Assembly (NCBI GenBank): GCA_964016885.1
Contig: CAXHJY010000023.1
Location: 115,713-179,712 of the forward strand
Direction of reading: 5' to 3'
DNA from: Eledone cirrhosa
Lineage: Eukaryota
Length of the DNA: 64,000 nt
A model generated the notes under the pieces. It searched no databases. It saw nothing but the letters and a program-made list of their open reading frames with translations, and was not told the DNA's origin. Positions 1 through 54,453 of this stretch are shown piece by piece. Position 1 is the first letter of the stretch. Every line of letters starts with the position of its first letter. A program made the position numbers and the translations under genes.

Positions 1-3000
1 ACCGGTTCTTAGAGTCATACTGGTTTTTGAGGAAACACCTTTCCTCTATTCTCCAGAAAGCCAAACAAGGAATATTGGACTAGTTTCGATGTTGTTACAT
101 CTCATCAGCAATATTTACCTATCTTCCGGCTTCTCTAGAGAATCGTGAAAGCACATATCGTTATATGCTTTTTCTATGAAAATTAGTAGTGGGCAGACTA
201 ATTTGCATAGAGCGTGAGTACGTACCGGTTCAACGGAGACGATAAAAACAAATAACGAAACGAAATTAAATTTCGTTTCGTTTGTAACTCACTTTTGTAT
301 GACTGACGCTTAAACAATTAAGTTAAAAATGTACATCCACATATGTATACTGAAATACTAGTATGCATATGAATACACACACGTGTACATATGTAGATGT
401 ACCGAGTTTTCACTGGTCACTTTACTGTGAGTGTCCAGCTATTCTGTATGTAGACACACAGACAAACCGGTTCTTAGAGTCATACTGGTTTTTGAGGAAA
501 CACCTTTCCTCTATTCTCCAGAAAGCCAGACAAGGAATATTGGACTAGTTTCGATGTTGTTACATCTCATCAGCAATATTTACCTATCTTCCGGCTTCTC
601 TAGAGAATCGTGAAAGCACATATCGTTATATGCTTTTTCTATGAAAATTAGTAGTGGGCAGACCAATTTGCATAGAGCGTGAGTACGTACCGGTTCAACG
701 GAGTCGATAAAAACAAATAACGAAACGAAATTAAATTTCGTTTCGTTTGTAACTCACTTTTGTATGACTGACGCTTAAACAATTAAGTTAAAAATGTACA
801 TCCACATATGTATACTGAAATACTAGTATGCATATGAATACACACACGTGTACATATGTAGATGTACCGAGTTTTCACTGGTCACTTTACTGTGAGTGTC
901 CAGCTATTCTGTATGTAGACACACAGACAAACCGGTTCTTAGAGTCATACTGGTTTTTGAGGAAACACCTTTCCTCTATTCTCCAGAAAGCCAGACAAGG
1001 AATATTGGACTAGTTTCGATGTTGTTACATCTCATCAGCAATATTTACCTATCTTCCGGCTTCTCTAGAGAATCGTGAAAGCACATATCGTTATATGCTT
1101 TTTCTATGAAAATTAGTAGTAGGCAGACCAATTTGCATAGAGCGTGAGTACGTACCGGTTCAACGGAGACGATAAAAACAAATAACGAAACGAAATTAAA
1201 TTTCGTTTCGTTTGTAACTCACTTTTGTATGACTGACGCTTAAACAATTAAGTTAAAAATGTACATCCACATATGTATACTGAAATACTAGTATGCATAT
1301 GAATACACACACGTGTACATATGTAGATGTACCGAGTTTTCACTGGTCACTTTACTGTGAGTGTCCAGCTATTCTGTATGTAGACACACAGACAAACCGG
1401 TTCTTAGAGTCATACTGGTTTTTGAGGAAACACCTTTCCTCTATTCTCCAGAAAGCCAGACAAGGAATATTGGACTAGTTTCGATGTTGTTACATCTCAT
1501 CAGCAATATTTACCTATCTTCCGGCTTCTCTAGAGAATCGTGAAAGCACATATCGTTATATGCTTTTTCTATGAAAATTAGTAGTGGGCAGACCAATTTG
1601 CATAGAGCGTGAGTACGTACCGGTTCAACGGAGACGATAAAAACAAATAACGAAACGAAATTAAATTTCGTTTCGTTTGTAACTCACTTTTGTATGACTG
1701 ACGCTTAAACAATTAAGTTAAAAATGTACATCCACATATGTATACTGAAATACTAGTATGCATATGAATACACACACGTGTACATATGTAGATGTACCGA
1801 GTTTTCACTGGTCACTTTACTGTGAGTGTCCAGCTATTCTGTATGTAGACACACAGACAAACCGGTTCTTAGAGTCATACTGGTTTTTGAGGAAACACCT
1901 TTCCTCTATTCTCCAGAAAGCCAGACAAGGAATATTGGACTAGTTTCGATCTTGTTACATCTCATCAGCAATATTTACCTATCTTCCGGCTTCTCTAGAG
2001 AATCGTGAAAGCACATATCGTTATATGCTTTTTCTATGAAAATTAGTAGTGGGCAGACTAATTTGCATAGAGCGTGAGTACGTACCGGTTCAACGGAGAC
2101 GATAAAAACAAATAACGAAACGAAATTAAATTTCGTTTCGTTTGTAACTCACTTTTGTATGACTGACGCTTAAACAATTAAGTTAAAAATGTACATCCAC
2201 ATATGTATACTGAAATACTAGTATGCATATGAATACACACACGTGTACATATGTAGATGTACCGAGTTTTCACTGGTCACTTTACTGTGAGTGTCCAGCT
2301 ATTCTGTATGTAGACACACAGACAAACCGGTTCTTAGAGTCATACTGGTTTTTGAGGAAACACCTTTCCTCTATTCACCAGAAAGCCAGACAAGGAATAT
2401 TGGACTAGTTTCGATGTTGTTACATCTCATCAGCAATATTTACCTATCTTCCGGCTTCTCTAGAGAATCGTGAAAGCACATATCGTTATATGCTTTTTCT
2501 ATGAAAATTAGTAGTGGGCAGACCAATTTGCATAGAGCGTGAGTACGTACCGGTTCAACGGAGACGATAAAAACAAATAACGAAACGAAATTAAATTTCG
2601 TTTCGTTTGTAACTCACTTTTGTATGACTGACGCTTAAACAATTAAGTTAAAAATGTACATCCACATATGTATACTGAAATACTAGTATGCATATGAATA
2701 CACACACGTGTACATATGTAGATGTACCGAGTTTTCACTGGTCACTTTACTGTGAGTGTCCAGCTATTCTGTATGTAGACACACAGACAAACCGGTTCTT
2801 AGAGTCATACTGGTTTTTGAGGAAACACCTTTCCTCTATTCTCCAGAAAGCCAGACAAGGAATATTGGACTAGTTTCGATGTTGTTACATCTCATCAGCA
2901 ATATTTACCTATCTTCCGGCTTCTCTAGAGAATCGTGAAAGCACATATCGTTATATGCTTTTTCTATGAAAATTAGTAGTGGGCAGACCAATTTGCATAG

Positions 3001-3956
3001 AGCGTGAGTACGTACCGGTTCAACGGAGACGATAAAAACAAATAACGAAACGAAATTAAATTTCGTTTCGTTTGTAACTCACTTTTGTATGACTGACGCT
3101 TAAACAATTAAGTTAAAAATGTACATCCACATATGTATACTGAAATACTAGTATGCATATGAATACACACACGTGTACATATGTAGATGTACCGAGTTTT
3201 CACTGGTCACTTTACTGTGAGTGTCCAGCTATTCTGTATGTAGACACACAGACAAACCGGTTCTTAGAGTCATACTGGTTTTTGAGGAAACACCTTTCCT
3301 CTATTCTCCAGAAAGCCAGACAAGGAATATTGGACTAGTTTCGATGTTGTTACATCTCATCAGCAATATTTACCTATCTTCCGGCTTCTCTAGAGAATCG
3401 TGAAAGCACATATCGTTATATGCTTTTTCTATGAAAATTAGTAGTGGGCAGACCAATTTGCATAGAGCGTGAGTACGTACCGGTTCAACGGAGACGATAA
3501 AAACAAATAACGAAACGAAATTAAATTTCGTTTCGTTTGTAACTCACTTTTGTATGACTGACGCTTAAACAATTAAGTTAAAAATGTACATCCACATATG
3601 TATACTGAAATACTAGTATGCATATGAATACACACACGTGTACATATGTAGATGTACCGAGTTTTCACTGGTCACTTTACTGTGAGTGTCCAGCTATTCT
3701 GTATGTAGACACACAGACAAACCGGTTCTTAGAGTCATACTGGTTTTTGAGGAAACACCTTTCCTCTATTCTCCAGAAAGCCAGACAAGGAATATTGGAC
3801 TAGTTTCGATGTTGTTACATCTCATCAGCAATATTTACCTATCTTCCGGCTTCTCTAGAGAATCGTGAAAGCACATATCGTTATATGCTTTTTCTATGAA
3901 AATTAGTAGTGGGCAGACCAATTTGCATAGAGCGTGAGTACGTACCGGTTCAACGG
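1..3956 (-). repeat. 465-bp tandem array (~8.5 units, continues off the left edge), one hammerhead per unit; retrozyme/Penelope pLTR-like family A
   Basis: Identical ORFs recur at 363, 828, 1293 ... 3618 (period 465). Only scattered SNPs between units. Each unit has AATATTG-CTGATGA-GATGT-AACA-ACATC-GAAA-CTAG-TC-CAATATT on the minus strand. Confidence 0.92.
71..115 (-). ncRNA. Minimal type I hammerhead ribozyme (family A); repeated at 536, 1001, 1466, 1931, 2396, 2861, 3326 and 3791
   Basis: Stem I AATATTG/CAATATT, core CUGAUGA, stem II GATGT/ACATC, GAAA, palindromic mini stem III (ACTAGT), GUC cleavage triplet. The copy at 1931 has a stem II mismatch (position 1951). Confidence 0.88.
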
Positions 3957-4663
3957 TCGAAACTAGTCCAATATTCCTTGTCTGGCTTTCTGGAGAATAG
4001 AGGAAAGGTGTTTCCTCAAAAACCAGTATGACTCTAAGAACCGGTTTGTCTGTGTGTCTACATACAGAATAGCTGGACACTCACAGTAAAGTGACCAGTG
4101 AAAACTCGGTACATCTACATATGTACACGTGTGTGTATTCATATGCATACTAGTATTTCAGTATACATATGTGGATGTACATTTTTAACTTAATTGTTTA
4201 AGCGTCAGTCATACAAAAGTGAGTTACAAACGAAACGAAATTTAATTTCGTTTCGTTATTTGTTTTTATCGTCTCCGTTGAACCGGTACGTACTCACGCT
4301 CTATGCAAATTGGTCTGCCCACTACTAATTTTCATAGAAAAAGCATATAACGATATGTGCTTTCACGATTCTCTAGAGAAGCCGGAAGATAGGTAAATAT
4401 TGCTGATGAGATGTAACAACATCGAAACTAGTCCAATATTCCTTGTCTGGCTTTCTGGAGAATAGAGGAAAGGTGTTTCCTCAAAAACCAGTATGACTCT
4501 AAGAACCGGTTTGTCTGTGTGTCTACATACAGAATAGCTGGACACTCACAGTAAAGTGACCAGTGAAAACTCGGTACATCTACATATGTACACGTGTGTG
4601 TATTCATATGCATACTAGTATTTCAGTATACATATGTGGATGTACATTTTTAACTTAATTGTT
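3957..4663 (+). repeat. Inverted ~1.5 units of the 465-bp repeat (fold-back end of the array)
   Basis: Reverse complement of ~3103-3809. Junction caacgg|tcgaaactagtcc. Ends at taacttaattgtt, abutting a (TA)n tract. Confidence 0.93.
4396..4440 (+). ncRNA. Minimal type I hammerhead ribozyme (family A), predicted cleavage after 4433
   Basis: aatattg CTGATGA gatgt aaca acatc GAAA ctag TC caatatt read directly on the + strand. Confidence 0.88.
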
Positions 4664-5155
<492 letters not shown>

Positions 5156-5279
5156 TAGGAGGTGAGTTTTATTGTAGTACAATAAAGCAATGCAGATATC
5201 GGATAAGAAGCACTCTACAATTTGTAGGACTGGAGAATACATAATATAAGATCAAAAGATGGTTAAAGGAGTTCCATGT

Positions 5280-5348
5280 ATTTTATTATGCGCATTTCAA
5301 AAACAAACATCATCATGCAATAATATTTGTGTTTTCATCAGATAAAAC
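5280..5348 (-). ncRNA. Type I hammerhead ribozyme, family B (left arm)
   Basis: Reverse complement of the 5473-5541 motif. Confidence 0.72.
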
Positions 5349-5472
5349 AGGAGAACATGATATGAAGGCTAAAAAACACATGTGGATAGTGCAGTTGATA
5401 GTGCAGATAGATATGTTGATTTAAAACTGCACTATCCACAAGTGTTTTTTAGCCTTCATATCATGTTCTCCT

Positions 5473-5541
5473 GTTTTATCTGATGAAAACACAAATATTA
5501 TTGCATGATGATGTTTGTTTTTGAAATGCGCATAATAAAAT
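5473..5541 (+). ncRNA. Type I hammerhead ribozyme, family B (right arm)
   Basis: ttttat CTGATGA [long stem II aaacacaaatattat...atgatgtttgtttt] GAAA tgcgca TA ataaaa. Palindromic stem III, AUA triplet. Confidence 0.75.
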
Positions 5542-6294
5542 ACATGGAACTCCTTTAACCATCTTTTTATCTTATATTATACATATATATATATATTTAT
5601 ATAAACATATATATATATATATATAAACATATATATACATATATTTATATAAACATATATATATAGAAACATATATATATATATAAACATATATATATAT
5701 ATATATATACATATATATACATACATATATACACACATTAATTAACACGTTGATATTTGTCTGTATTATTCCGGGCGAATTGAAAAAGAAAGATAGCCAA
5801 AATATCTAAAACGAGCGGTCAATATAAATGACATTTTATTACACGGATTCTACAAAACCGACAACAAGAACAATACTAACAACATGCAGCAACAATATCA
5901 ACAACAAACGAAACAAACAACGAAACAACAACAATAAAACATCAAGTACAAGAATTTCAAAAACATCAACAACAAAACCGCCGTTGTGCAACACAAACAA
6001 CAACAACAACAATACTGAAAGCGACAACCTAGAAAGAAAAATATAATAACAACAACTACTAAACAAACAAATATTGAAACTATAACAAAATCAAACGAAA
6101 AATCGAAATCGACGAGAAAGAGAATGTTAAAATTATTAAGAAATGTCTAAATAAAAGAAATAATGAAAAAGAAGACAATGTTCCGATCAAAATGTCAGAC
6201 GAGACGTGAACAGATTAAGAAGCTTAGTGGGTCTTAATTTGTTGTATGGCTTAAGTGGGGAGGGCTTAAGGGTGGAGAGAATGGTGTGTTTATA

Positions 6295-13203: not shown

Positions 13204-13248
13204 AATATTGGACTAGTTTCGATGTTGTTACATCTCATCAGCAATATT
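13204..13248 (-). ncRNA. Hammerhead ribozyme, family A
   Basis: Identical to the array motif. Confidence 0.85.
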
Positions 13249-13413
13249 TACCTATCTTCCGGCCTTTCTAGAGAATCGTAAAAGCACATATCGTTATATG
13301 CTTTTTCTATGAAAATTGCCCACTACTAATTTTCTGCCACTACTAATTTTCATAGAAAAAGCATATAACGATATGTGCTTTTACGATTCTCTAGAAAGGC
13401 CGGAAGATAGGTA

Positions 13414-13458
13414 AATATTGCTGATGAGATGTAACAACATCGAAACTAGTCCAATATT
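13414..13458 (+). ncRNA. Hammerhead ribozyme, family A
   Basis: aatattg CTGATGA gatgtaacaacatc GAAA ctag TC caatatt. Confidence 0.85.
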
Positions 13459-13707
13459 CCTGTCTGGCTTTCTGGAGAATAGAGGAAAGGTGTTTCCTCG
13501 AAAACCAGTATGACTCTAAAAACCGGTTTGTCTGTGTGTTTACATACAGAATAGCTGGACACTCACAGTAAAGTGTTCAGTGAAAAACTCGGTACATCTA
13601 CATATGTACACGTGTGTGTATTCATATGCATACTAGTATTTCAGTATACATATGTGGATGTACATTTTTAACTTAATTGTTTATACATACATATATATAT
13701 ACATACA

Positions 13708-15964: not shown

Positions 15965-18735
15965 TATGTTCCTTTATCAGCCAAAAGGGCACATACGTAG
16001 GAGACAAATACAAATGGGGAGTTTACATACAGGTATATGAAAATAAAACTATTAATAAAATACCAAATAACGATTGAAATCCACAATAGTGGGAGGCATT
16101 CCACAGGAGTTGTACACACCCCGAAAAAAATGTACAACCCTCATCTCCAGGAGCACCAAGAGTGAGTACTCCCCTCCTCTCTTTCTCTTTTTCCTCAACC
16201 TACAGGCTTATATAGAGAGAAGGCCCAACCACTCGGGCCATCTTTGCCACATTCAACCGCCTTTTATAAAATTTGCTGGGCTACAGCAACTCTCACTCCA
16301 TCCTGAATCTTCTTCCAAAATGATAATTGAAAAAACGAATCAGTTGTTCGCCAGAGAGAAAGGTGTCTGACCTCGGCCCTTTTAACCTCGTCTACCATAT
16401 AACCTCGTTCACCATAGCCATAACACATAGGAAAACCGCCTCTCCTTCGTTTTTGAAGGAGGGTGGCGGTTTTATCATGACAATGGTCTCGCGGGTTAAC
16501 TGGATTGGTCACACCCGCGACAATAATTGTTCTACATAGCCCCACAGGACTGTAACGCCCGGGAAGCGTACAAATGCGTGCGCGACGCTTTCCTCGTCGC
16601 GCACGTATCTCGGGCAGATCTTTTACGAAGGGTCCCTGCTTCGTGTCTGTTAAGCTTGTCTCGAATGGTAGACCTCCTCGGTAGCACTGCCAGGCCAGGG
16701 ACTTTGGGAAGTTGTCCATCGTTCCCGGGCGGAAGGTTGTACCGAACAGACATCCTCTTCGCCCAGAGTTTCTCTGAGCACGTCGTTGCACTGGCTGCGG
16801 ACCACCCCTCTTTAGAATGACGAAGTGGAGTCTCCACTGGTCGCCGGGTCCGCCTGCCAGAGGGCTGTGGGCGTCTGAGCACATTCGATGTGCCAGTCAC
16901 CCGTTTTCCTCGGTCTCTGCTTGACCCACCACTGCAGCTCGGTCAGCGAGACCAGTCGTGGGAATGCTCGCATCGCGAACGGGGCCCACACCGGTTGTCC
17001 GGTGAGGAATACGTGGAGGTGCCGCTGCCTGAGCGCGTGTTTGCGCATCGTCAGCCACGGCATCGCCAGCCTTCCTTTTGAAGGGTGTTGGCAACAGGTG
17101 GATCTTCTCACCAAAGTAGCCCGCTTCTTCCAAAGAATTAGAAGAGCGCGCGCTCCATTTTGATGAGCGTTTTGGCTGGACAAGGCACGACGGTCAAGCG
17201 GTAGTATATGACCGGCGCTATAAAGTGTTCTCCACCTCCGCTCGACCTTTCAAGGATAGTTTCCACTCAGCCTACATCACGGTGAGCGTAAACACCTTGG
17301 ACGTCACCTCGTTCCAATTCTTTTCCACCTCGAAGTGCGGACCAAAGCAGACCTCGAGCAGCTTTATCGGTCCTTCCGTCCAGCGTCCAAGACGCCATCG
17401 GAAGGCATCGGTTTGCCTCTCCACGTTCCGAGTTGCAAACCGACGGATTTGTCCCGGTTCAGCTTCGCTCCTGTGAACCTTTCGTATTCCTTCAGTAAGG
17501 TGCCGACCTCCCCGATTTGCTAGGTGCTCTAGACCATTACTGTTATGTCACCTTGACCCTTGAGCAGATGTTGCTGCTGTGCATTGCAACAATCCAGCCC
17601 CTGAACACGGGTGGTTCCGAAGCCTGCCGCCTGGAGCCCCACATCCATGTAACGATGGTCAACCCTATCGAAAGCCTTAGACTGATCCAAGTTTATCGGG
17701 GTCCCACCGAAGCCAGATTTACACCCTACCCTCTCTATTATGTATCGCATAAGGTGGAGTGTGTCGTGTATGGACCTGTTCGGGATTGCGCATGTCTGCG
17801 CTTCTCCCACCAGGTTTTCGACGACAAGCCCCAGCCTCTTTGCCAACACCTTGGCCAAAATCTGTAACTGTGTTTTGCAGAGTTATGGGCCGGAAGTTGC
17901 CTATGACACCCCCTTATTCTCGTCCTTCCTGACTAAGGTGACCAGACTTGGTCACAGAACTGGGAATTATCCCGTTCTGCTGCCAATTGCAGTAGACCGC
18001 TTCCAGGAGACCGGAGAACAAGTCTGGCATTGCTACGTAAAATTCGTAGGGTAGACCATCGAGACCTGGAGATTTGAGTTTGCCGCATTGGCTCAGCGCG
18101 TCCCCTATCTCAGCGGCCGAAATCGGCCTTTCGCAGAACTTCGCCTCGCTGTCCGAGAGTCGCGGTAGGCCGCCGAGGCATGGACTGAAATCCATAGCCC
18201 CTCCCGGCGTGCCGCTCTGCCCGAACATTTGAGCAAAGTGCCGCTGAAAAACCGCGCACATCTGCTTCGACTCACGCATCCGTCTTGGTCCTTCAAAGAC
18301 CGAATCGTGGACATGTTGCCACTTTTCGCCTCCTTCACTCGAGCCCAGCTAACAGCTTTGGTTCTCTCGTTTCCCAGTGTACGTATTTTGCTTCTGACAA
18401 CAACGCAGCCTTCAAGCTCTGCGTTGAAGAACTGGTCCAAGCCCGTTCTCGTCGCAAGCACTCTGGCTACGTTGCCACTCCTAAGTGCCTCTTCTACTTT
18501 ATCCACCAGTTCCCTTTCGGTCTTATTTCTATCTAACATTAATTCTTTACTAAAACCTATCGAGTCTAATCTAACTGCCCTCTTGAGAGAGTACCACCAT
18601 CTGTTGTTGACAATGGCCCCGTCAAGTGGTACTTAACTAAAGTGCTAATCCGTCTACTGTAGGCTTTGCATGTCGGTAACGACAAGATCATCTTCCAGTA
18701 ACCGGGTCCCTGTCTGTGGATTTTGTTAAGGTTGA
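15965..18735 (-). mobile_element. Decayed Tx1/L1-clade non-LTR retrotransposon (ORF2 RT pseudogene plus 3' UTR)
   Basis: Frameshifted ORFs contain GPGYWK, KSPGLDGLPYEFY, MAKVLAKRL and LDQSKAFDRVDH. The YADD region appears deleted. GC-rich relative to flanks. Confidence 0.85.
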
Positions 18736-26592: not shown

Positions 26593-27944
26593 CTGCATGT
26601 GGTTGCGCATCAGTATATCTTCATTAAACATTTTTAGAAACAAATATACAAATCAATTTAACTAATGAAGAATTACATTTCCTTCAAATCCGTCTTTTTC
26701 TTTCTTTCCCGCCAATTCTCCAGAGACAAACATCATAATTCAAAGACGTCTGTTTATTAATTCTATCATGCGAATACAGATGAAGATAAACATCTCTTTC
26801 TCTCTCTCTCTCCCTCTCCAACATTCTTCTCTCTCGTCTCTGTCTCTCTTCCCCTTTCTCTCTCTCTCCAACTTTCATATCTCTCCTCACTCTCTGTCTC
26901 TCTTTCTCTCTCTCTCCAACTTTCATATCTCTCCTCACTCTCTGTCTCTCTTTCTCTCTCTCTCTCTCCAACTTTCATATATCTCCTCACTCTCTGTCTC
27001 TGTCTCTGTTCCACACTGTTGTATTTCGTCACTCTCTCTCTCTCCTCTCTATCCCCTTTCTATCTCTCTATCTATCTCTTGCTCTCTCTCTCTCTCTCTC
27101 CAACTTCCATATCTCTCCTCACTCTGTCTCTCTATCTATCTATCTCTCTCCTACAATCACACCTCTCCAGGGCGAGCCTCACAAATCCCAACCCATTTCT
27201 CGAATTGCACTAAAAACTTTGTCTGTTTCTGTCTCGTTGTTGTTGTTGTTATTATTGTTGTTGTAGTTGATGTTGCCGTTATTGCTGCCGTTCTTATTAC
27301 CATTGTGACAGTTGTTGTTGTTGTTGTTGTATTAATTGTCTTGGTTGTTATGTTTGCTAATGTTGATGTCTTTGTGGTTGTTGTTGTTGTTGTTGTTGTC
27401 GTTGTTTTCTTTCAGAACATATTCCAGTATTTATACGAATGGTAATACAGCTTCTGTTGTTGCTGTTGCTATTATTATTATTGCTGTTGCTGTTCTTAAC
27501 GTTGTTTTAGTCGTTGACGTGGTTGTTGTTGTCGTTAGTGTTGTTGGTCTGGTTATTGTTGTCGTTGCCTTGCTATGTGAAAACATTTAATTGCTCCCCC
27601 TCGTGAATCAAGTGGTTGGGGCGTTGAACCCCTACATTCTATGACGTCAATGTTCACCATTTGTTAACTCTAATAAAAAAAAATATTATGAAAACCTTCC
27701 AATTGACTTAATGTCAGAAACTCAGCTTCGATTTGAAACTATTTAACAATTTTAGACAATGTATAACAGGTTCCTTTCAATCACTCCGTTCCCAGATTTA
27801 AATATCATTGGAGATGCCTTATTAGACTTCTGTTGTTGTAATGGACGCTCTATTATGTACACCTTCTTTCAGGAAGGCATCTAATAATATACATAGTATA
27901 AGGAGAATCAGGGACAGAGATAAATAATTGATTTTGTTATAGTT

Positions 27945-29330
27945 TCTGATCTCTTTGATTCTGCGCTGGATGTTCGTGTTAAGAGGGGGGCTGAGCTGTC
28001 AACTGATCACCATCTAGTTATCTGAAACTTGAGACTATCTAAAGCCAAAAAAAGACGATAAAGCTGACTGCTCCAGGGCGATTTACTGGATAGGGTGGGA
28101 AGCGTTAGTAGATATGGAAGTCAGGACCGGGTATGCAGATACTATTGCATCCAAATTCAGAGAATTCCTTGATCAGACTGAGTACGTTGAGACAGAATGG
28201 AGATTGTTCATCTCAGCGTTTCTGCTTCAGCTGTTAAATACCGGGGAAGAAATAGGCTTCTTGTGACGCCCTATGGCAGGAGGACCCCTTGGTTCAATCA
28301 AGAGTTCAAAGATGACATCCGAGGAAAGAAAGAGGGGAGGCATATAAGCATGGTTTGGAAATAAGTCCTCATTCTTATACTTGTACACGAAGTATCGCAA
28401 GAAAGAGTGTAAATGCGTCCAAAATGAAGACATGGCAGTGCTTTCGTGTTAAGCTGGAATTCTACTTCAGATCAGCAAATAAAGTGTTCTGGCAGACCAT
28501 CCACCGACTTCGTAATAGGAAGTCCTCCTCCATTCCTGCTATCAGGAACGCGTCTGGGGTTCTCCTCTCTTCAGATAGGTGCATCCTTGCGAAATGGAGT
28601 GAATATATTTCTGATCCACTGAACCCGATCATAACAGCATATTCTGATGTATACGAGGTGCATCTGGGAGCGGTGACCAATCCCTCGAAGGCTGAGGTTA
28701 CAAGAGCAGTTACAGAGCTCAAATGTGGCAAGGCCACTGGGGAAGATGAGATCTGGTCCGAGATGTTAAATGATGGTATTCTCTGGCTTTCTGACATATG
28801 CCTGGTGGCTTGGGTCTCTGGAAAAGCACCTACGCAATAGAAATTGGGAGTGATAATTACTATTTTCAAAAAAAAAATGAGACGAGTAATTTTACCAATT
28901 ACAGAGGGATCCTCTTGTTAAGCCTCCCGGGTAAAGTCTATGCTAAGTGTCTGGCAAAGAGATGCAAGGAAAGTATCGAGTCCAAACTAGCTGATGAACC
29001 GTGCGATGTTCGCCCCCGACGCAATATTCACATTGCGGTAGCTCTTGTGATTATTGTCAAGATGTATATTCTTGTTTTGTAGATCTCGAAATGGTCGTGC
29101 AGGAGTATGGGATCGATGGTCAGCTTCCTGATAGAATGATGTCTCAATCGATTGCCCGAGTATTAGTGTTCGGATACATGGTGCTAAATCAAAACTTTCA
29201 ATGTGGGAGTCGCACTCCGCCAACAGTGAGTTATGTCACCTCTCCCGCTCATTATTTTTATGAATATGATTGACATGCACAGCCAGGTTGTTAGGGTTAC
29301 GACCGGCAGGTGTAAAATCAGTCGGCTGGA
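27945..29330 (+). mobile_element. Decayed RTE-clade (Expander/Rex3-like) LINE: APE C-terminus plus RT N-terminal part
   Basis: KRGAELSTDHHLV, SANKVFWQTIHRLR, GKATGEDEI, NYRGILLLSLPGKVYAKCL, CFVDLE, with stops and frameshifts. Confidence 0.85.
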
Positions 29331-29406
29331 ATTAATTGTAGCCATTGTTACTCATTCCTCACTTTACCGTTAATCTATTATCCCCTCCTCTCATATATAT
29401 ATCGCA

Positions 29407-29493
29407 CCCGAACTACACCGATGTCCTGTAATTCAGCGCCGAAACATCGGTTCGGGACACATTTACAGCTGACGATGGAAAATACTTTTTTCC
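29407..29493 (+). ncRNA. Candidate non-circularly permuted hammerhead-like RNA
   Basis: accgatg TC ctgtaa - ttcagcgcc - GAAA catcggt - ttacag CTGACGA - t ggaaaa..ttttcc hairpin. Confidence 0.55.
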
Positions 29494-29569
29494 TTTCTCC
29501 TCCGCTTCCGTGCTAACCACCATCCTAAACCTTGTTTTTAGTAACCACAGAGCTCCTTTCATTTCATAA

Positions 29570-29612
<43 letters not shown>

Positions 29613-35201: not shown

Positions 35202-35233
<32 letters not shown>

Positions 35234-35237
<4 letters not shown>

Positions 35238-35320
35238 AGGTATATGATTTTTAATGCGATGAAATACCAATGATGGTTGGCAAATCACTGATGAGGGACT
35301 AATTTTATAATATGTAACCC
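35234..35320 (+). ncRNA. Candidate non-circularly permuted hammerhead-like RNA
   Basis: ggta TA tgattt - ttaatgcgat - GAAA tacc - aaatca CTGATGA - ggg...ccc. Confidence 0.52.
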
Positions 35321-35357
35321 ATGTGCAACCACGCAGTATTACTCTTTCTTCCCATGT

Positions 35358-35400
<43 letters not shown>

Positions 35401-50055: not shown

Positions 50056-50310
50056 CATAGCCAAGTGGTAAAGCTGCCGGACTTACGATTATAGTGCCGT
50101 ATGCTGAAATTGTGGACTGGGTTTTATGCCGTGGTATTGAGTAAAATAATTCATTTTACTTTGCTCTGATTAAAATGGGTACCAATAGTAGATGGGAGTT
50201 TAACCCTGCAATGAACTGGCGTCCTGTCCAAGGAAGTCTTGCATTCTAAGTAAGGGAAACCAGGATAAGTGTCGACCTGATGACTCTCCGGCCAAGAGAC
50301 TGATAAAATG
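50056..50310 (+). mobile_element. SINE family 2
   Basis: tagccaagtggtaaa A-box, aaccctgcaatgaactggcgtcctgtcca, gaaaccaggataag..cctgatga. Homologous to 23965-24260. Confidence 0.55.
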
Positions 50311-54055: not shown

Positions 54056-54453
54056 ATAATATAAGATCAAAAGATGGTTAAAGGAGTTCCATGTATTTTA
54101 TTATGCGCATTTCAAAAACAAACACCATCATGCAATAATATTTGTGTTTTCATCAGATAAAACAGGAGAACATGATATGAAGGCTATAAAACACTTGTGG
54201 ATAGTGCAGTTTTAAATCAACAAGTGTTTTTTTAGCCTTCATATCATGTTCTCCTGTTTTATCTGATGAAAACACAAATATTATTGCATGATGATGTTTG
54301 TTTTTGAAATGCGCATAATAAAATACATGGAACTCCATTAACCATCTTTTGATCTTATATTATGTATACTCCAGTCCTACAAACTGTAGAGTGCTTCTTA
54401 TCCGATATCTGCATTGCTTTATTGTACTACAATAAAACTCACCTCCTACATAT
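54056..54453. mobile_element. Second fold-back family B element with hammerheads at 54096-54162 (-) and 54257-54323 (+)
   Basis: Reverse-oriented near-identical copy of 5152-5581 with a different central junction. Confidence 0.8.

Follow-up and report, generated by a model that had tools for sequence, protein, structure and literature searches.

Eckert et al. (2023; PMC10085705) enumerated six possible orders of the hammerhead building blocks, taking CUGANGA and stem II to be inseparable, and found non-circular forms in environmental sequence only, plus one weak bacterial candidate. Type SGC (HRIMA-1 and its variants; Eckert, Friedrich, Weinberg and Weinberg, 2023) comes only from metatranscriptomes, and the descriptor in the consulted parts of that paper places stem II right after CUGANGA(U), with a G-C as the first pair and at least two pairs more. 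Type CSG is represented by two unique soil metagenome sequences for which cleavage was shown (PMC10085705). According to the consulted parts of the respective sources, the type I hammerheads of Penelope-like elements and non-LTR retrozymes are circular permutations (C-G-S) and often stand in tandem (PMC7229834; Li et al., 2026, preprint). Naiads are Penelope-like elements with an N-terminal GIY-YIG domain and (TA)n targets; the parts consulted of the paper describing them (Craig et al., 2021, PMC8557442) state that they have no canonical hammerhead and thrive so, with 'HHR_core' and 'HHR_half_core' appearing as notes only, and hypothesise that the hammerheads of other Penelope-like elements process tandem transcripts. 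Neither permuted hammerheads in Naiads nor a form opened between A9 and position 10.1 was described in the literature searched, which included few subscription journals and preprint supplements, and the consulted parts of Forgia (2023) hold nothing on extra helices.

We analysed a 64,000-nucleotide stretch of Eledone cirrhosa DNA, hereafter the window. A sequence scan located a complete invariant hammerhead core (CUGANGA, GAAA and UH) on the forward strand at 35.24-35.29 kb, with U35243-A35244, GAAA at 35261 and CUGAUGA at 35288, so that the cleavage site comes first, GAAA second and CUGAUGA last, which is the non-circular order S-G-C. Stem I joins strand 1.x (35245-35250) to strand 2.x (35282-35287) through six Watson-Crick pairs, and stem III joins strand 16.x (35239-35243), which ends in U16.1, to strand 15.x (35264-35268) through four Watson-Crick pairs plus an A-U; strand 15.x directly follows GAAA (G12-A15.1), the two together spanning 35261-35268. 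Both stems lie next to the core, as in the hammerhead class, and CUGAUGA (C3-A9) occupies 35288-35294. By analogy with known hammerheads, full-length copies are predicted to cut after 35244, in the AUA triplet at 35242-35244; the same triplet is found in two of the metagenome loci described below (L080 and L086). The S-G-C order with stems I and III matched twice in the window, here and at 29.4 kb, and never in 900 local dinucleotide shuffles (one match at a looser stringency). The core words, the two stems and their order agree with the permuted hammerhead proposed in the first-pass annotation of this DNA, which had also extended stem III by att/aat beyond a bulge. We rejected that extension as a microsatellite coincidence, since those bases belong to the flanking (AT)n, and the contigs of the repeat family described below carry other letters upstream of 35236/35237, where the family alignment begins. 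Nested minimum-free-energy folding misses the structure (z +1.4), as expected because the order is pseudoknotted, a case in which such folding is uninformative. The Rfam hammerhead families (types I-III) gave no match at gathering score in the window or in 20 metagenome loci. Other GAAA...CUGANGA matches in the window belong to type I repeats, an RT-like coding remnant or a SINE-like stretch, and failed the stem test.

The locus resembles type SGC in its linear S-G-C order, its pseudoknotted stems I and III and the short linker by which stem I is joined to stem II. It differs in source (animal genomic repeats instead of metatranscriptomes) and in stem II: type SGC pairs right after CUGAUGA(U), whereas the canonical pairing of the bases before GAAA with those after CUGAUGA amounts to a single G.U pair at 35.2 kb, two pairs at 29.4 kb and zero to one in seven metagenome loci, so the block order of type SGC is present and its stem II is not. 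With type CSG it shares the cyclic order C-II-S-G; the difference is that in our form the break falls within block C, separating A9 from 10.1, which gives the family the linear order II-S-G-C instead of C-S-G with stem II contiguous to A9. The core also sits in a short, high-copy animal retro-repeat, as do the type I hammerheads in the consulted parts of PMC7229834 and of the Li et al. (2026) preprint; unlike those, the 35.2 kb copy is solitary, non-circular and not of type I, and the tandem type I units of non-LTR retrozymes are not found in it. We therefore place the 35.2 kb form outside types I-III, SGC and CSG, with a predicted hammerhead-like way of working, cleavage included.

To define the repeat, we aligned public contigs to positions 35224-35376 at 80% likeness and obtained 1,082 contigs from run X1 and 54 from X5, both from one organism, and 21 from X4 and one from X6, from two other organisms. 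The repeat is present in high copy number, and the copy at 35.2 kb is clipped at its 5' end and set in (TA)n: the family contigs delimit the copy, inferred to be a Naiad-type 3' tail, at 35236-35362 (forward strand), an (AT)n tract without family depth replaces the 5' part of the element at 35204-35235 and is likely the insertion target, and a (TA)n tract occupies the 3' end at 35364-35399. The alignment and the loose ends of the contigs start at 35236/35237, the upstream letters differ from those of the window copy, and the loose ends run into (AT)n; both flanks are (TA)n at 35.2 kb as well as at 29.4 kb. Summed family depth is highest over GAAA, where it reaches 621,724, and the long single pieces listed have a depth of 6-26; the peak value is not a copy number, and on a rough reading the family would comprise tens of thousands of copies. 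Changes carried by at least 3% of the contigs spare the invariant core, and within CUGANGA only position 7 varies (35292, 51 contigs). In the stems, C35267T keeps a G.U pair in stem III and A35283G a U.G pair in stem I, while C35281A would extend stem I, whose strand 2.x is compatible with both of its changes, and A35269T would extend stem III; the wobble-keeping argument is weakened by C>T and A>G being the commonest changes anyway. No change is listed at 35236-35266, and edge effects in the alignment of short contigs may account for part of this gap. Family-specific DNA patterns had no match in the metagenome, viral or prokaryote collections. The first-pass annotation had allowed for a truncated type I hammerhead, recognizable by a GAAA after the ccc in homologous copies. 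The family contigs cover 35321-35340 and no such change is listed there; the copy is indeed truncated, in that it lost its 5' leader, and is not a truncated normal type I hammerhead.

The leader was read from 30-letter loose-end consensi of run X1 (16 and 20 contigs, agreement 0.83 and 0.79), and also from X4 and X5. In the majority form, the loose-end TCGCA is complementary to 35255-35259 (five Watson-Crick pairs); one of the two loose-end forms of organism B (2 contigs) reads ATCGCA and pairs with 35260 too (six pairs). In the majority loose end, a C.U mismatch instead of G-C occupies position 10.1-11.1, and one organism B form has A-U there. Adjoining TCGCA on its 3' side, the last six letters of the consensus are complementary to 35275-35280, which would be the 3' strand of a stem III extension whose partner lay in the lost 5' part. 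The stem II strand 11.x (35255-35260) is thus predicted to pair with an upstream leader that is absent from the window copy, where the best Watson-Crick partner in the 60 nt upstream is 2 bp long; with this and the single canonical G.U, stem II next to G12 is not formed in the 35.2 kb copy. The ggg...ccc hairpin (35295-35320) listed in the first-pass annotation is likely not stem II: it folds weakly (-1.1 kcal/mol), forms no pairs with the bases preceding GAAA and is likely an accessory helix after A9, as hairpins after A9 in three metagenome loci (L025, L064 and L143) suggest. The leader pairs with the 35.2 kb stem II strand at -6.6/-7.3 versus -5.2 for the downstream cgca, a modest margin of 1-2 kcal, and in full-length copies stem II would most likely use the lost leader and neither ggg...ccc nor the 3' cgca. 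We predict that the 35.2 kb copy, which lost both its leader and the strand that would complete the stem III extension, is inactive and does not cut. It is probable that the locus is a clipped (TA)n repeat copy, likely the 3' tail of a Naiad-type Penelope-like element, whose full-length copies would be hammerheads wired II-S-G-C.

The second locus, at 29403-29572 (forward strand), was found by the stem scan between (AT)n tracts and is a divergent copy of the same architecture, with a stem I of 6 bp, a stem III of 7 bp plus A-U and an intact stem III extension helix (29407-29412/29451-29456). The common block order claimed for the two loci holds, and the distance between U16.1 and C3 is 45 nt in each. 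The linker between stem I and GAAA, said to be of equal length, measures 10 nt at 35.2 kb and 9 nt at 29.4 kb. In a global alignment the two loci score little better than shuffled sequences, 12 of 500 of which do as well. The distal pairings tgcg/cgca and agcg/cgct, which had been read as covarying, can form (-5.2 and -4.6); they lie on opposite sides of a GTGC-AACCAC anchor, so they do not covary at one position. This anchor, GTGC(T/A)AACCAC at 35323-35332 and 29510-29520, could pair with the linker GCG or the leader GCAC and is a candidate switch or tertiary contact. A search pattern joining both loci gave seven viral matches, all without the stems, and was discarded.

The 29.4 kb locus also brings in a different account of stem II, in which the element would be of type SGC with an insertion, the partner lying 3' of CUGAUGA behind a hairpin, and clipped copies could still fold. 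Suitable strands exist, at 35.2 kb gtgca (35323-35327) or cgca (35332-35335) and at 29.4 kb gtgct, near the distal pairing of the first-pass annotation and, at both loci, within or by the common GTGC(T/A)AACCAC, where the last pair would swap A-U for U-A. At 29.4 kb the U-GG after A9 fits the SGC descriptor in the consulted parts of Eckert et al. (2023), and pairing with the 3' strand (5 bp, -6.7) is better than with the locus's own leader (3 bp, -3.7). At 35.2 kb, by contrast, pairing with the 3' partner amounts to 4 bp (-3.4 or -5.2) and leaves a gap of 2 nt before GAAA. The metagenome loci described next bear on this account from both sides: partners 25-30 nt behind A9 do exist in L064, L025 and L143, against which, in the seven loci with the S-G-C order, the 60 nt that follow A9 offer a Watson-Crick partner of 1-4 bp at best and the leader provides 4-6 bp. 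Taken together, we regard an SGC element with an insertion as improbable, and keep the leader as the predicted source of stem II.

We searched metagenomes with a degenerate pattern for the Naiad reverse transcriptase (RT), which gave at least 120 loci; long flanks were obtained for 80, and 33 loci extend at least 1,250 nt past the motif. With a fixed descriptor, seven of the 33 carry S-G-C in the sense 3' UTR (L024, L026, L041, L047, L052, L080 and L086) and two carry C-S-G in the sense strand (L085 and L090, with one and the same sequence), leaving 24 tails without a hammerhead. The same descriptor found nothing in 62 kb of the ORF side, 0.075 matches per shuffled set, and a single antisense S-G-C match among the 33 loci, in L047, approximately 865 nt behind the stop and with no obvious leader partner. 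The RT stretches of the seven S-G-C loci are 23-57% identical, which marks these loci as distinct families. In them canonical stem II is practically absent, as noted above, and a leader stem II of 4-6 Watson-Crick pairs is anchored at 11.1, beginning with G10.1-C11.1 in six of the seven; the shuffle p values range from 0.006 to 0.24 (Fisher 3.7e-4), three of the seven not being significant singly. Across these loci, the two window copies and L073, which looser limits brought to light, every stem column shows two to five pair types; because this table presupposes the structure, it shows turnover and is no independent test. A GIY-YIG domain lies N-terminal to the RT in L026, L080, L085 and L029, several scores being below the Pfam cut-off, and L047 matched neither domain. 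In L029, much as in a pseudo-LTR, the motif precedes the ORF and stands at the 5' end.

Complete contiguous CSG hammerheads were found in the Naiad 3' UTRs of L085/L090, L150 and L169. In L064, L143 and, by eye, L025 (3' of the RT ORF), the CSG form has hairpins of approximately 25-30 nt between A9 and a 6-bp stem II; the sequence of stem II differs among the three, and stem III there has 2-3 bp plus A-U. Each of these loci carries two small hairpins. A viroid hammerhead tolerates single extra bases after A9. A second set of 37 loci, from contaminated prokaryote assemblies, is highly redundant and holds many decayed copies; 27 were long enough, eight of them tandem copies of one element, and these 27 yielded two contiguous CSG hammerheads and no four-part II-S-G-C. 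Searches of viral contigs by RT motif and by protein found no relative. Four further loci (L031, L043, L069 and L099), as well as bivalve and hemichordate Naiad consensi, share another conserved 3' UTR motif that is not a hammerhead and has no Rfam match, and L035 holds a decayed copy similar to the Acropora Naiad motif, in which GGAA has replaced GAAA.

The Naiad-type loci also bear on whether the 35.2 kb match arose by chance, or is the remnant of an ordinary type I or III hammerhead that lost its second half, as the presence of ordinary type I hammerhead repeats in the window might suggest. The locus has no sequence match to those repeats, the family has no GAAA after the ccc, none of the 900 shuffles reproduced the arrangement, and the same order recurs behind unrelated Naiad-type ORFs. 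The family, shuffle and Naiad-locus results refute both versions, and we consider them very improbable. A selected permuted hammerhead fold, as first proposed from the stems of two loci, is now supported by the shuffles, the family variants and the Naiad-type loci, a stronger basis than the original one.

We then examined the published Naiad 3' ends by eye and without statistics, taking the last 330-400 nt of the 53 consensi in File S5 of PMC8557442, from which motifs farther upstream would be missed. Within this part of the source, six of the 53 consensi have an intact leader-S-G-C (Obim, Ovul, Amil, Anas, 3_Chem and 2_Movir), representing four lineages (octopus, Acropora, Clytia and Morbakka), with a stem II of 4-6 bp that joins the leader to the bases preceding GAAA. 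The leader-S-G-C is imperfect at a further three ends (Aacu, Bfor and Esco), and six nematode Naiad ends have a complete contiguous CSG. In Naiad_Obim and Naiad_Ovul the motif is preceded by the 12-mer ACTTATTTTAGT; the X1 loose end starts with this 12-mer too, at almost the same distance. The 35.2 kb family resembles the Naiads described in the consulted parts of Craig et al. (2021) in its (TA)n target and its very high copy number and, as read by eye, in this 12-mer and a motif position as in the Octopus Naiads; it differs from Naiad_Obim and Naiad_Ovul in that the window copy has no ORF and other stem sequences. No GIY-YIG plus RT ORF was present at 35.2 kb or elsewhere in the window among the 141 frames scanned, and the contig ends and window frames linked no Naiad ORF to the family. 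From these sequence likenesses, the family is likely a Naiad derivative, namely a 3' tail. A 16-mer of the coral Naiad motif had 13 viral matches without the rest of the motif and was set aside.

In our model, four strands of the full-length RNA would come together in a normal hammerhead core with all three helices formed, and the leader would supply 10.x: the strand that normally follows A9 would come from approximately 60 nt upstream, and the chain would be open between A9 and 10.1. II-S-G-C would then be the cyclic order of type CSG cut at the A9/10.1 link. A plausible route leads from contiguous CSG, through hairpins inserted after A9 as in L025, L064 and L143, to the opened form; those hairpin-inserted forms suggest that the link tolerates opening. 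The opened form may combine the II-S-G of one tandem copy with the C of its neighbour downstream, Naiad-type elements being known to make partial tandems, and its job may be to cut the tandem transcript of the element after UH (35244), as proposed for other Penelope-like elements. We lean, somewhat less firmly than for the locus itself, towards a general model in which Naiads across animals carry non-circular hammerheads, including a seventh, core-opened wiring (II-S-G-C, with A9 and 10.1 unlinked) that would be self-cleaving, be present in tens of thousands of copies in one genome and derive from CSG via hairpin insertion and tandem duplication.

The fold may also be real and hammerhead-derived and no longer cut in this non-coding family, acting as a signal by which the Naiad protein recognizes the RNA, or simply being carried along. 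This would agree with the C.U at 10.1-11.1 in the majority loose end, with the AT-rich stems and their lack of MFE support, and with the high proportion of Naiad tails without a hammerhead (24 of 33), and a few master copies would suffice for the high copy number. An invariant core in which only N7 is free speaks against it, as do the A-U at 10.1-11.1 in one organism B form and the axolotl hammerhead, which, according to the consulted parts of Cervera and de la Pena (2020, PMC7229834), has a U.U at the base of helix II and is still 22% cut in one hour. We judge a non-cutting fold unlikely and retain the prediction that full-length copies cleave. If they do, non-circular hammerheads would be abundant in animal genomes, so that the statement of Eckert et al. 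(2023; PMC10085705) on their occurrence would need amending, as would that of Craig et al. (2021; PMC8557442), in the parts consulted, that Naiads lack canonical hammerheads. Moreover, the core link A9/10.1, thought to be fixed, would be dispensable, and three forms within one retroelement clade would make visible a path by which permutations arise. The sequences for testing are already at hand in the consulted part of the published consensi and in the loci listed here.

The window as a whole is AT-rich, and microsatellites and transposon remnants abound in it; among the best 150 of 796 matches, an E-value Rfam scan showed type I hammerheads elsewhere together with microsatellite noise. Tandem 465-bp units span 55-4456 and end in an inverted copy; every unit contains a type I hammerhead that is HH9-like (E 2.5e-6) and scores under the gathering threshold. 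An inverted pair at 13.3 kb (13235-13500) is related to these units, and the arrangement is retrozyme- or pseudo-LTR-like. Two copies of another repeat (5156-5580 and 54056-54448) bear type I hammerheads in inverted arms, with a palindromic stem III. We take 27700-29300 (forward strand) to be a broken LINE-like RT region, without a Pfam match, and 50190-50290 (forward strand) is presumably a SINE-like stretch. On the reverse strand lie an RT fragment at 17532-17882 (RVT_1, E 1e-5) and a Pif1 helicase fragment at 57824-58390 (E 4.6e-9).
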